Part shown: in pieces, positions 9,137 to 29,379 of the stretch
How the letters are laid out: every line of letters starts with the position of its first letter
Numbering within the stretch: the first letter of the stretch is position 1
Translations under genes and position numbers: made by a program
Virus record (IMG/VR): IMGVR_UViG_3300047650_000023
DNA: 64,000 nucleotides
Direction: 5' to 3' (one strand)
DNA from: a virus
Notes under the pieces: model-generated
Told to the model about the DNA's origin: nothing
Databases searched by the model: none
What the model saw: only the letters and a program-made list of their open reading frames with translations

Positions 9137-9862
9137 ATGAATAAAGAAGTAGAAACTATAATTTTAGATCCGAATAATGTAATTGAGAATTTTAATGAAG
9201 GTGTTCCGTATATAAAATTATATGATAATATAGCTAAAAATCTAAGAAAAATTTTAACACAGACTGAATTTGTAACTGCTTATAGTTTAGTAGATTATAT
9301 AGATGAATTTAATGTAATTAAGTTTGATGAAAAATTTTTATCCATGCAAAATTTATCTGAATATTTAAATGATACATATTCATCTATGAGAAGAATTATT
9401 CCAAGTTTAATAAATAAAAATGTTATTTGTAATTATTACATTGAAATCTATGATAACAAATATACAAAAGCATTTATATTAAATCCTTCTATAGCAACAA
9501 AAGAAAATTATAATTCTAAATATAAAGAGTTATTTGAAAATCCTAAATTAGTTGAAATAAATCATGCTATGTATTCAAATAATTCAGATAGAAGTACACC
9601 AGAATATCGTCAATGGATACAAGACTCATTAGACCGTGATAATTATACTTGTCAATGTTGCTGTTCTACAGAAAATTTAGAAGTACACCACATTTTGAAT
9701 TATGCACAATACAAAGATTTGAGGACTAATTTAGATAATTCAATTACATTATGTCAATGTTGTCATAGTCCTATGATTAAAGGTTCATTTCATAATATAT
9801 ATGGAACTAAAAATAATACAAAAGAGCAGTTGGATGAATACTTAGGACAAGCCAAAAAGTAG
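9137..9862 (+). CDS. RepL-like N-terminal domain fused to an HNH endonuclease
   Basis: N-terminus parallels 8451 ORF (YIKLYD...LT..E...SL..K.V...NPSI); C-terminus 'RDNYTCQCC...LEVHHI...NLDNSITLCQCCH'. Confidence 0.8.
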   Translation: MNKEVETIILDPNNVIENFNEGVPYIKLYDNIAKNLRKILTQTEFVTAYSLVDYIDEFNVIKFDEKFLSMQNLSEYLNDTYSSMRRIIPSLINKNVICNYYIEIYDNKYTKAFILNPSIATKENYNSKYKELFENPKLVEINHAMYSNNSDRSTPEYRQWIQDSLDRDNYTCQCCCSTENLEVHHILNYAQYKDLRTNLDNSITLCQCCHSPMIKGSFHNIYGTKNNTKEQLDEYLGQAKK

Positions 9863-11141: not shown

Positions 11142-11927
11142 ATGGCAAATAAATGTTTTTATGTCTATAAGTTTTTAGATGATAATAATAATATTATCTA
11201 TATTGGAAAAGCGAAAAATTTAAACCATAGAATAATAAATCATTTTGGAAAGTTTGGGCATTTACCTAAAGAATGTTATAAAAATATTTCTAAAATAGAA
11301 TATTGTATTTTTAATACTAATACTGATATGTCTATATTTGAAATTTATATGATAAATAAATATCGCCCAATTTATAATATACACTCTAAATATAATGAGA
11401 ATATTAATAATTGTATATTTCAATTATAAGAACCTATTTGGAATAAATATATAAAAGAAGATAAAAGAAAAGTTAATAAACATAAAATTATTAATAAACG
11501 AAACATAAAAGTAATTTGTCTTACAACAGGTTTAATCTTTAATTCTTTATCAGATGCTAATAAATATTATAATATAAAAAGTCATAACGCAGTAAATAGT
11601 GTTTGTCAAGGGAATTCTAAGTCTGCTGGTAAAAATCAAATTACAGGTGAAAGATTGTATTGGGCTTATTATAATGATTATTTATCTGGGAATTATAGTA
11701 TATACAATAAATGTTTTAAAATTATATGTTTAAATAATAAAATGATTTTCAATAATTTAGAAGATGCTAAAAATTATTTTAATTTAGATAATGTCACTAG
11801 AATTTCGGAATGTTGTCATAATAAAAGTAGATACGGAGGTAGAGATCCAAAAACAAATGAAAAGTTACAATGGATGTTTTATAATGATTATTTAAAATTA
11901 AACAATCAAAATAATAAAATAGCATGA
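11142..11927 (+). pseudogene. GIY-YIG endonuclease with NUMOD1-like repeats, interrupted by one in-frame TAA (11427-11429)
   Basis: 'YVYKF...IIYIGKA..L..RI..H'; same frame stays open after the TAA to 11927 and encodes two 'ICL...F....A...C....G....L.W..Y.DY' repeats. Confidence 0.8.
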
Positions 11928-11933
11928 GAAAAT

Positions 11934-11979
11934 AAAATAGAAGGACTTTATATTAATTTATAAAGTTCTTCTATTTTTT
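11934..11979. terminator. Intrinsic terminator, probably bidirectional
   Basis: aaaatagaaggactttata / tataaagttcttctatttt, 19-bp stem with one G-U, A- and T-tracts at the ends. Confidence 0.8.
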
Positions 11980-12243
11980 ACGATTTTATTTTCATTTCAA
12001 TATATCTACTAGAGCCATCACAATGCCCTACAATTGTTTAAATATAAATACTAATAACTATAGCAAAAATGTATTTATACTAGCCTAGTCGTAAAATTAA
12101 ACGTATAGGAGTATATTTATATATACAAATCAGTAATTAATATTATTTAAACAAACAATCTTCTATTTTTTATATCTTATATATTCAGTAAAAATTGATA
12201 ATAATATCAACATCAAAATAAAATTTATAAAGAAGGTGATGCC

Positions 12244-12405
12244 ATGAACACAAATAGAATACCCAATAGATTAATCGGTGAGAAATCTCCTTATCTTTTA
12301 CAACATGCTTATAATCCTGTTAAATGGTTTCCTTGGGGAGATGAAGCTTTTAATAAAGCAAAGCAAGAAGATAAACCGATTTTCTTATCTATTGGGTATA
12401 GCTAG
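12244..12405 (+). pseudogene. yyaL: 5' fragment of a yyaL/DUF255 thioredoxin-domain gene (53 aa), not in the ORF track
   Basis: RBS AGAAGGTGAT; [53 protein letters not shown]; TCHWCH codons resume at 12423-12440 after 20 extra nt. Confidence 0.9.
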
Positions 12406-12408
12406 TTT

Positions 12409-12456
12409 GGTTACTATAATGTACCTGCCACTGGTGCCATATCGGCTAAAGTAACC
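12409..12456. mobile_element. Predicted attP of the serine integrase
   Basis: 48-bp imperfect inverted repeat (ggttact...agtaacc) centred on TG at 12432-12433, inside acctgccactggtgccat (TCHWCH codons); overlaps integrase stop. Confidence 0.8.
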
Positions 12457-13972
12457 TTTTATAGACAATTTCTAATATGGTTTCGGTTTCGTTACATATC
12501 CAAATAATTTTATTAACTATAGATTTATATAATTGATTCCTTTTTTGGGGTGTATCTGCTAAAGATATATCATTAACAAACTTTTTTAAATTGTTAATAT
12601 CTTCTTCGTAATTATAATTTGACGTAGCTTTTAATTGAATATTTAGATCATTGATTTCTTTCCTAATCAACTTAATTTTTTTGTTCCATTTTTCTTTTCT
12701 TAATCTCCATTCTTCTTTATTATAATCTCCTATTTCATACATTTCATTAACTTTATCAAGAGCTTTTAAATATTTATCGAGTTCATTTGTCTTACTTAAT
12801 ATATTATCTTGAATAATTTTAATATCTTCTGTATTATCAAAATTATTTTGCAAAGAATAAATGCTTAAATATTGTTTAACTTTATTTATCACTAATTCTT
12901 CTAATGTTTTTTCCATAATTCCTTTGTTAATGCACTTATTTCCGTATGGATCTTTAAACCAACATGGTTTCATTAATACATTACCATTTGGTTTAGTAAG
13001 AAAACTATGGGTATGACCACATCTTCCACACTTTATTAAGCCACTAAAAGCAAATACTGATTGTTTTGTTCTTGATGGCATTTTATTATTATCTAATATT
13101 AATTTAAGAATTTTATCATGTTCAGATTGCGTTTTTACTGGATCATGGCAATTTTCAATAATAATCCATTGGTCTTTTGAATTTTTATGAAGTTGTTTAG
13201 CGTTAGGTTTTTTTGTTTTATGACCATCTCCAATAGATTTATTACTTATTATTTTTCCTAAATGAGTTTCGTCTACCAATAATCTGGAAACAGTCAAGTT
13301 ATTCCATTTCATATGTCTTGGAGATAAAATATTTTGATTATTAAGAATGTTAGATATTTGAGTTGTTGAATTTCCAGATATATATAATTCTATGATTTGT
13401 CTATAAACTTTAAGTTTTTCATCATTAATAACAAGTCCTTTTTCATTATATTTATCTTTGTATTTTTCATATTCATATGGATATGGTGGTGTTCCATTAG
13501 TCCAATTACCTCGTCTTGATCCAACCATTTTACCTTGTTTAAATCTTTTAGAAATCATTTTATATTCTTGTCGCGCAAATAACCCCTTAAAATCAGCATA
13601 TGTATCATCTAAATCATTATTTAGATCATATACTTTTTCAGGGGTTATTATTAAAGTATTAGATTTTTGAAATGCTTTTTTAATTCTATCTTGTTCTCCT
13701 AAGTCACCACGTCCCAAACGATCATAATCAACGCTACATACAGCATCATATACCCCTGCTTCAACATCTTTTAATAATTGTGTCATTTTTGGACGCATAT
13801 CAATACTATCTGAAGTTCCCACTTCTGCGTATTCTACATATTTAAAATTATTTTTAGTACATAAATCTGTTAAAATAGTTCTATGTTTCATTAAATCATC
13901 TTCATTATCTGCACGAGATTTTCTAATATATAAAGCTACAAATTTAACGTTATATTCCATATTATTTAACAT
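12446..13972 (-). CDS. Large serine recombinase (phage integrase); real start probably the ATG at 13960
   Basis: 'ALYIRKSR' catalytic motif, 'DYDRLGRG', recombinase domain 'GNWTNGTPPYPY', Zn ribbon 'CGRCG', C-terminal coiled coil. Confidence 0.95.
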   Translation of the reverse strand: MLNNMEYNVKFVALYIRKSRADNEDDLMKHRTILTDLCTKNNFKYVEYAEVGTSDSIDMRPKMTQLLKDVEAGVYDAVCSVDYDRLGRGDLGEQDRIKKAFQKSNTLIITPEKVYDLNNDLDDTYADFKGLFARQEYKMISKRFKQGKMVGSRRGNWTNGTPPYPYEYEKYKDKYNEKGLVINDEKLKVYRQIIELYISGNSTTQISNILNNQNILSPRHMKWNNLTVSRLLVDETHLGKIISNKSIGDGHKTKKPNAKQLHKNSKDQWIIIENCHDPVKTQSEHDKILKLILDNNKMPSRTKQSVFAFSGLIKCGRCGHTHSFLTKPNGNVLMKPCWFKDPYGNKCINKGIMEKTLEELVINKVKQYLSIYSLQNNFDNTEDIKIIQDNILSKTNELDKYLKALDKVNEMYEIGDYNKEEWRLRKEKWNKKIKLIRKEINDLNIQLKATSNYNYEEDINNLKKFVNDISLADTPQKRNQLYKSIVNKIIWICNETETILEIVYKRLL

Positions 13973-28055: not shown

Positions 28056-29069
28056 TTAACTTGCTAATTGGTCTTCGTTATGTAATTGCAAATATTCATC
28101 ATAATACATCCAAACCAATGGTGTCCCATCTGGGAGTTTTCCTACTGATTTCTGTTTTCCTTTACAACAATTTTGAATATTATTAATATTATATTTTTCT
28201 GACGCTTCTTTGGTAGTATTAAATATTTCATTAGTAGTAATACAAATTACTTTTTTTATATGATTATTTTTATATGTTTTTTTATCATTACCTACTTTCA
28301 AATACTCACTATAATACATCCATTGTAATAGCTCACTTGTAATCGGGTGCTTACCACAAGATTTTCTTCGACCATTACAACATGCACAAATACTACTATA
28401 ATCTATATTATATTTCAGACTAGCTTCTTTTTCTGTATTAAATATTTCTTTTGTATTAATACAAACAATTGACTTTTTATTAAAACTATCTTTCCCTGTA
28501 AATAATCCATAAATATCTTTATTCCAAGGAATACAACCTTTTTTATTTTCACTCATTTTTTCTTTAGATTCATCACTCATGTGTTTTCCGAACCAATAAG
28601 AATTTTTACTTTTTAATATTGCATGATTATTTTTAATCTTTTCGATTGATTCCTTTGTATGGTGTCTTCCATACCACGATGAATTAATTCCACTATATTT
28701 ACCTTTCCTTGTTTCACTTATTCTATTATAAATATTTTTAATTTCATCATCTGTTTTACCTAATATTAAATTTCCACCATCTCCACCAGAAGCAATATTA
28801 TAATAGTCATTTGACTCAGTAGCATTGTGATTTTTTATGTATTCTATTTCTAATTGATTTAATTCTTCTTTAGAATAAGCTATTGAGAGTATTTCACGAA
28901 TAAAGTTTTCTTTACCATATTTGATTATCGCACGTTTTAAGTGTTTTCCACTTCCCAAATATGTAATCCACGTATTAGATATATCAAATTTCTTTTGACC
29001 AATATACTTTTTACCATTGATTAAATTAGTTGTGATATAAATAAATCCATAAGGATCTTTTACTTCCAA
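28056..29069 (-). CDS. Free-standing GIY-YIG homing endonuclease with NUMOD3/NUMOD1-like repeats; start reassigned to TTG at 29069
   Basis: 'YGFIYITTNLINGKKYIGQK', 'YYNIASGGDGG', 'WYGRHHTKES', two 'VICITTNEIF' type repeats; GGAGG 8 nt upstream of the TTG. Confidence 0.9.
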   Translation of the reverse strand: MEVKDPYGFIYITTNLINGKKYIGQKKFDISNTWITYLGSGKHLKRAIIKYGKENFIREILSIAYSKEELNQLEIEYIKNHNATESNDYYNIASGGDGGNLILGKTDDEIKNIYNRISETRKGKYSGINSSWYGRHHTKESIEKIKNNHAILKSKNSYWFGKHMSDESKEKMSENKKGCIPWNKDIYGLFTGKDSFNKKSIVCINTKEIFNTEKEASLKYNIDYSSICACCNGRRKSCGKHPITSELLQWMYYSEYLKVGNDKKTYKNNHIKKVICITTNEIFNTTKEASEKYNINNIQNCCKGKQKSVGKLPDGTPLVWMYYDEYLQLHNEDQLAS

Positions 29070-29379
29070 TATTTTATCCTCCCTGATCAGAGGAGGTGTG
29101 TACACACATTTTAACTTGCAAGTTCTCCTTAATACTATCCTTTCTTAAAATTTAATATTAATTTATTATAGTACCCAATCGTCTTCAATATGTTCGCAAA
29201 TTCTATAATGATTTCTATCGTCTTTAATAAATTCTGCCATAACATTATCAATCTTAACAAGTTGATAATTACTCTTTATAAACTTCCTTACATGCTTTCT
29301 ACGTGAATTATAACTAAGGCTCATTACTTATTTCTCCTTTAGTTTTAAAATGTGAATCAACTACCAATTTGGTAGTATA

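Follow-up and report, generated by a model that had tools for sequence, protein, structure and literature searches.

A serine-integrase attachment site that carries the start of its probable target gene yyaL, and a possible translational bypass of its attP arm

Introduction

Why should a phage carry the first 53 codons of a bacterial gene directly in front of its own attachment site, and why should these codons be separated from the next six by 20 nucleotides that do not belong to the gene? Both questions are raised by a stretch of 64,000 nucleotides of viral DNA (IMG/VR record IMGVR_UViG_3300047650_000023; the whole stretch is called the window below). To our knowledge, the phages A118, SPβ, phiC31 and Bxb1 interrupt the gene into which they integrate and carry no copy of its start. 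In the window, by contrast, a conserved and apparently translated copy of the 5′ part of the target abuts the P arm of attP. An initial annotation, made from the letters of the window alone, offered four explanations for the broken copy: a relic of imprecise excision, a product made as two polypeptides, a donor of a promoter or ribosome-binding site, and an unusual bypass or processing event. Programmed bypassing of high efficiency is, as far as we know, established in only a few systems, namely gene 60 of phage T4 with its cassette relatives and the byps of yeast mitochondria. Here we follow the locus through related elements and weigh these explanations against each other.

Results

On the plus strand, direct reading places a Shine–Dalgarno sequence at 12232–12239 and, behind it, a phage copy of the first 53 codons of yyaL/DUF255, which ends in SIGYS and is closed by a TAG stop codon (12244–12405). 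The ribosome-binding site is strong and of the GGAGGTGAT type, and it is kept, with equal spacing, in 29 related elements. The encoded fragment matches Pfam family PF03190 (Thioredox_DsbH/DUF255, the thioredoxin-like domain of YyaL) over profile positions 1–47 with an E-value of 1.5e-20. Its last serine codon, AGC (Ser53; 12400–12402), and the TAG that follows (12403–12405) would be the take-off codon and stop of the bypass proposed below. The stop codon and the outer part of the left attP arm make up a coding gap of 20 nt (12403–12422, plus strand), after which the codons ACC TGC CAC TGG TGC CAT (TCHWCH; 12423–12440, plus strand) form the common core that attP shares with host yyaL; 3′ of position 12440, the sequence departs from the yyaL frame. 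The ribosome-binding site, the 53 codons ending LSIGYS and the TCHWCH codons can all be read as they had been annotated, and simple restoration of the gene fails, as was also stated there: the gap shifts the frame by +2, and stop codons stand in both relevant frames, the TAG in that of the fragment and a TAA (12417–12419) in that of TCHWCH.

Upstream of the fragment, a promoter-like site (12195–12224, plus strand) matches 10 of the 12 sigma-70 consensus positions; this is weak evidence, and in the AT-rich region around it such sites are no commoner than in shuffled sequence. Farther upstream, a strong hairpin followed by a run of T (11933–11978) stands after an ORF at 11655–11927; most likely it acts as an intrinsic terminator and so sets the transcription unit of the fragment apart. 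A search of Rfam gave no meaningful match; only this terminator-like hairpin scored, weakly and with microRNA models.

The core lies within an imperfect palindrome of 48 bp (12409–12456), whose 23-nt arms are complementary at 15 of 23 positions and perfectly so over the outer 7 nt. We read the left arm (12409–12431) as the P arm and, from its sequence and the symmetry, the right arm (12434–12456) as the P′ arm. When the whole window was scanned, only 2 of 63,940 centres reached the standard of this palindrome, and the scan put its centre at T12432/G12433, the TG of the Trp codon on which the annotated inverted repeat had been centred; this central dinucleotide (12432–12433), the exact symmetry centre of the site, is the presumed point of crossover. 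The right arm overlaps the last codons, and thereby contains the 3′ end, of a gene on the minus strand (12446–13972) for a large serine integrase of 508 amino acids, with Resolvase, Recombinase and Zn_ribbon_recom domains (Pfam E-values of 1.7e-17, 5.2e-14 and 1.2e-08, respectively).

In serine-integrase attP half-sites, the outer zinc-ribbon motif is shifted 5 bp outward relative to attB (PMC3783163). The P arm of the window has a TTGGTTAC motif at −25 to −18, and a similar TTGGGTAT motif would sit at −20 to −13 in an uninterrupted gene; the outer P-arm motif TTGGTTAC is 5 bp farther from the centre than TTGGGTAT would be in such a gene. Since a P arm needs its outer motif about 5 bp farther out, the native codons would be unfit to serve as one, and some non-coding bases must stay. 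We consider it very likely that the site is the attP of a large temperate phage, whose serine integrase targets the Trp codon of the CHWC motif of yyaL.

The rest of the window codes for tail proteins, an endolysin, a PolC-like polymerase, a ligase, helicases and an anaerobic ribonucleotide reductase, and the integrase protein is recorded on a sequence of 187,759 bases. This gene content and size, together with the anatomy of attP, show that the window is from a large phage in its unintegrated form. Close relatives of the phage were found neither in INPHARED nor in IMG/VR. Since no lysogen of the phage itself was found either, we infer its attB in yyaL and its crossover at TG from its more distant relatives and from the symmetry of the site.

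Some 500 homologues of the integrase were found, the closest being 45–65% identical, and their contexts were gathered by exact protein look-up and by scanning one genome per species; many of them adjoin split yyaL genes. At the predicted attR, homologous integrases (32–65% identical) are present in more than 25 Bacillota genomes, among them Sporomusa, Dehalobacter, Anaerocolumna, Brassicibacter, Pectinatus, Oscillospiraceae and Christensenellaceae. There, a fragment ORF of 53–54 codons is followed by a stop codon, a gap of 13–24 nt, the codons ACN TGY CAY TGG and host yyaL, whose 3′ ORF of about 610 codons is intact. At the same loci (L030, L095, L107, L158, L161, L165 and others), attL has the 5′ part of host yyaL running unbroken through the core into a foreign P′ arm, and this 5′ part still codes for residues 1–60, including the CxxC motif. 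The TCHWCH codons are present at every attR, attL and attP junction of the relatives, and polymorphisms in their lysogens confine the switch between host and element to the region of the TGG codon. The initial annotation had predicted an attB in the CxxC codons of host yyaL and a fragment placed ahead of the host 3′ part at attR, and had suggested a search for lysogens with a split yyaL; for the homologous integrases, the prophage boundaries in lysogens of more than 25 genomes indeed fall at the predicted yyaL site, with the fragment ahead of the 3′ part and with a matching attL at several loci.

In these more than 25 Bacillota, the integrase gene is followed by the fragment. Among the elements, the integrase gene may stand upstream in the same direction, be convergent as it is in the window, or be divergent (L033); in every case the fragment is found on that flank of the core which comes to be joined to the host 3′ part. 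L024 and L108 contain unintegrated forms with the arrangement of the window (fragment, attP and convergent integrase), and other attP forms have the integrase upstream (L007, L032). In two elements (L020, L029) the integrase gene is broken, yet fragment and host 3′ ORF are intact.

Several loci depart from this layout. In L005 (11008–11060), an integrase gene 56% identical to that of the window stands directly against a P arm and the 3′ part of host yyaL with no fragment, which indicates that a replacement 5′ end is not universal in the family and that restoration is not obligatory. Tandem fragment copies occupy single yyaL loci in L020 (1095–11790), L031 (11600–16710; four copies in a row) and L023 (11548–12164). 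At position 4437 of L020, the fragment and P arm of one element are joined to the P′ arm of the next, showing that elements pile up at the yyaL site. In L028 (4660–4830), a fragment copy that follows an integrase remnant is joined to the core without a gap; its 5′ half is element-like and its 3′ half host-like, which suggests homologous recombination of an element fragment with the host 5′ part. Four metagenome junctions (L112, L113, L115, L156) have only the last 30–40 bases of the fragment, with stop codon and gap, and represent decayed or truncated copies.

In the set found through the integrase, the fragment ORF is intact in 29 of 29 elements, and a stop codon, which the search did not require, stands directly 3′ of the Ser codon at all 29 junctions. 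Among these 29 element copies, the frequency of the major allele is 0.88, 0.91 and 0.675 at codon positions 1, 2 and 3, respectively. Over 37 central codons of the fragment, the median dN/dS is 0.09 at a dS of about 1.35, where synonymous change is saturated; for the fragment of the window compared with the others, it is 0.11. These patterns of substitution show purifying selection on the fragment at the protein level. The companion integrases are only 32–65% identical, which implies that selection on the peptide has been long and continuous. Conservation of the fragment among relatives, including its dN/dS, was the check that had been suggested for the relic option, and the intact ORFs and low dN/dS speak against it.

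The fragment also encodes a candidate RNA structure. Its 13 nt at 12259–12271 (plus strand; codons I-P-N-R) are 100% complementary to 12387–12399 (plus strand; codons S-I-G-Y), which end directly before the last Ser codon. The resulting helix spans 115 nt and is long-range rather than a local hairpin; it is present in the structure of minimum free energy predicted for the window RNA (−53.6 kcal/mol, z=−2.24). A helix of 10–15 bp can form in 26 of the 29 element copies, and pairing is limited to 7 bp or less in five copies with contiguous junctions (host 5′ parts and the L028 chimera). Compensatory changes from A-U to G-C are seen, ATA/TAT having jointly become GTA/TAC in several lineages; in L036 the helix is shifted outward, and all mismatches in element copies are G-U on the sense strand. 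Across 120 sequences, the ten core pairs are paired in at least 95%, one of them being AU in 67, GC in 16 and GU in 15; the search pattern itself prescribed the 3′ arm of the metagenome sequences, and the unbiased evidence comes from the 5′ arm of that set and from the integrase-based set.

Genomes and metagenomes together yielded 114 distinct junction types, whose gaps measure 13–24 nt and fall into all classes modulo 3. The annotated length of exactly 20 nt is right for the window phage and does not hold as a constant of the family, since relatives have these 13–24 nt or, in Bacilli, about 30–60 nt. The last triplet of the gap, the proposed landing triplet, resembles the Ser codon of the fragment, AGY going with NGN and TCN with NCN. 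The middle base of the two matches in 103 of 113 junction types, against 4–21% in other registers. Their last two bases are identical in 45 of the 113 types, where the maximum in 20,000 permutations was 29, and triplet and Ser codon belong to the same full codon box in 27, far above chance. Position 1 of the triplet is A only together with AGY (20 versus 0), and G at this position, which would wobble-pair, is almost never seen.

In seven of the eight lysogens for which both junctions are available, the triplet goes with the Ser codon of the element itself rather than with the host's; this argues against an explanation that we considered, in which the triplet extends the identity of attP and attB and tracks the host's Ser codon. 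Joint switches of Ser codon and triplet are also seen inside individual P-arm families and in one close clade, where L026 has TCG with CCG and L001 has AGC with TGA, their fragments being 89% identical. In the largest clade (L001, L002), the triplet is TGA, and only its middle G matches. In the window, it is TGT (12420–12422, plus strand), directly 5′ of the Thr codon, and agrees with AGC at two of three positions, the middle base and, by wobble, the third; the two are not codons of one tRNA.

Longer gaps came from a pattern search of 401 Bacilli genomes, in which the stop codon was the only bypass signal that the pattern demanded. Five gaps of about 30–60 nt were found at the same yyaL codon (L208–L212, in genomes G001, G187, G117, G047 and G213). 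In four of the five, the take-off and landing codons are read by the same tRNA (TCG/TCG, AGC/AGT, TCC/TCT and TCA/TCA), and a stable tetraloop stem-loop of −11 to −19 kcal/mol starts at, or includes, the take-off codon and the stop. In three of these four, GGAG or GAGG stands a few bases 5′ of the landing site, and one of the four (L033) adjoins a homologous integrase gene. The long-gap relatives are a close analogue of the signal set of T4 gene 60, and elements at the yyaL site seem to have solved one problem in two ways.

Conventional decoding across the gap does not rebuild the gene. Readthrough and frameshifting over the gap of the window are blocked by the TAG after Ser53, the TAA in the TCHWCH frame and a TAG in the third frame (12399–12401), and frameshifting is also ruled out by the gap lengths of the relatives, which fall into all classes modulo 3. 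No in-frame start codon that would include the CxxC motif is present in the gap, either in the window or in the relatives. A hop between two TAT triplets would land in the wrong frame. The core codons are conserved with a period of 3 nt, which we discarded as proof of their translation because attB is itself a palindrome (AC.TG.CA on both sides) that could be read by the integrase.

Discussion

We propose that the phage brings a translated substitute for the start of yyaL, 53 codons preceded by a ribosome-binding site of their own, and that ribosomes complete the gene by translational bypass. Because the fragment abuts the P arm, integration would place it upstream of the host 3′ part at attR; the 20 non-coding bases would stay in the message and would have to be bridged. 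A ribosome would stall with its A site at TAG and peptidyl-tRNA(Ser) paired to AGC, and the message would then slide by about 20 nt through it. The helix 12259–12271/12387–12399 would re-form behind the ribosome and favour forward movement, and decoding would restart at Thr-Cys-His-Trp, giving full-length YyaL in lysogens. At take-off, the 3′ arm of the helix (the 12–13 bases 5′ of the take-off codon) would lie inside the ribosome, to be freed after a slide of at least about 13 bases; we infer a link between this release and the shortest gap observed, 13 nt.

We put the probability that ribosomes bypass the 20-nt P arm to rebuild yyaL at about 0.45. Features that define programmed bypass in T4 gene 60 (10.1101/2022.08.31.505936) are present jointly: a stop codon, a related triplet, a gap of any length modulo 3 and an upstream structure able to re-form only when the ribosome has passed. 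Some signals are lacking in the window, which has no local take-off stem-loop (the local fold reaches only −3.2 kcal/mol) and, 5′ of the landing site, only a GGT 8 nt upstream and no clear mini Shine–Dalgarno sequence at 5–7 nt. A cognate AGT overlaps the stop codon of the window and is a possible decoy. The short-gap design, if it works as proposed, would be a new bypass signal, composed of a stop codon, a partly matched triplet and a helix closing behind the ribosome. The generalization that phages, islands and conjugative elements widespread in Bacillota repair a split gene by programmed bypass of their own attP arm is more tentative still.

Among the four options of the initial annotation, bypass is the one best supported by the comparative data, the relic is the one they contradict, and a split product or a promoter or ribosome-binding-site donor is less probable and explains less. 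These last two can be taken together: with the same attP and the same integration, but no bypass, the fragment would act as promoter, ribosome-binding site and leader, translation would re-initiate at Val60/Met61 of the host part, and YyaL would be made as two polypeptides, an N-terminal one from host or element and a C-terminal one. We think this unlikely, although every fragment has a stop codon and a strong, conserved ribosome-binding site, the Trp-Cys sequence TGGTG lies 7 nt before the ATG of Met61 and resembles part of a Shine–Dalgarno sequence, gene callers start the 3′ ORF at Met61, and the host 5′ part at attL could still provide residues 1–60 with the CxxC motif. Such a product, made of the element's fragment and a part starting at Met61, would lack the CxxC motif. 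Nor does it explain why the last gap triplet tracks the Ser codon of the element, why a mere leader should keep the amino acids of YyaL at a dN/dS of about 0.09, or why the long-gap relatives have stem-loops and matched codons like those of gene 60.

It is also improbable, to much the same degree, that yyaL is simply off in lysogens and that the 53-residue peptide has a role of its own, be it interference with or mimicry of host YyaL or regulation of the element, with the helix governing expression of the peptide or stability of its mRNA. The peptide is conserved and, as its sequence suggests, translated, from free attP forms as well as from prophages, and elements of the L005 type integrate in the same place without any fragment. 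An independent peptide, however, would not need to be oriented always to read into the host 3′ part, at any position of the integrase, or to end exactly where identity with the host must yield to the P arm; the link between landing triplet and Ser codon would have no role, and host 3′ ORFs are intact even beside decayed integrase genes. Very improbable is a fragment without function, left behind by imprecise excision or past recombination: recombination of fragment and host 5′ part does occur (the L028 chimera) and arrays of partial fragments exist (L020, L023, L031, L113), but 29 of 29 fragments are intact beside integrases diverged to 32–65% identity, dN/dS is about 0.09 with saturated synonymous change, ribosome-binding site, stop codon and element-specific helix are all conserved, and the sharing of element-specific features argues against recent independent captures from hosts.

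The att module combines features of three kinds of known system. With the serine-integrase attP sites of the Listeria A118 (LI) integrase model, SPβ, phiC31 and Bxb1 (Rutherford et al. 2013, PMC3783163), it shares an integrase with Resolvase, Recombinase and zinc-ribbon domains, an imperfect palindrome of about 50 bp, a central dinucleotide, the 5-bp shift in the P arm and a target within coding sequence. Islands in dusA, which use tyrosine integrases (Farrugia et al. 2015, PMC4482086), and elements in tRNA genes likewise replace the end of their target beside the core, equipping the rest of the gene with a different 5′ end and, probably, with a promoter. In those cases the join through the common core is seamless and in frame, whereas here a stop codon and 20 non-coding bases intervene.

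With T4 gene 60 and its MobA-cassette relatives (Manning and Atkins 2022, 10.1101/2022.08.31.505936) and with the mitochondrial byps of Magnusiomyces, bypass of the P arm would share a stop codon after the last sense codon, a triplet at the end of the gap that is related to the take-off codon, a gap introduced by a mobile element and an upstream RNA structure able to re-form after the ribosome has passed. Bypass in T4 gene 60 is considered to be driven by a 5′ structure that folds once it is outside the ribosome, and in one gene-60 clade the gap is only 20 nt and the stem-loop much reduced (10.1101/2022.08.31.505936). The window differs from gene 60 in that there is no sequence homology between them, the codon match is partial, the local take-off stem-loop is missing, the upstream structure is long-range, the sequence of the gap is dictated by integrase binding, and bypass is deduced from sequence comparison. 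Measured against the features that define it, the window thus falls outside the gene-60 family, and we give close to even odds that it works in a similar way.

Literature searches brought up no paper that names yyaL as a target of serine integrases, and none on bypass at attachment sites. Even without bypass, a conserved and, on present evidence, translated copy of the start of the target within a serine-integrase att module appears to be undescribed. If bypass is confirmed, culturable Bacillota would offer hundreds of natural variants of it, making it a common mechanism rather than a curiosity of T4 and one yeast. These variants would be of two kinds, one pairing a short gap with a long-range helix and the other a long gap with a take-off stem-loop, so that the rules of take-off and landing would become testable. 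It would also mean that a serine-integrase element can enter an essential-looking motif of a conserved gene at no cost to the host. Serine integrases are widely used in genome engineering, and costless insertion of this kind, if true, would be of relevance there.

Apart from the genes named above, the window phage codes for an NAD-dependent ligase, nrdD/nrdG and several radical SAM proteins, and no tRNA genes are present in the window. Genes resembling HNH-type, GIY-YIG and other homing endonucleases are scattered through it (9137–9862, 11142–11429 and 28056–29105).
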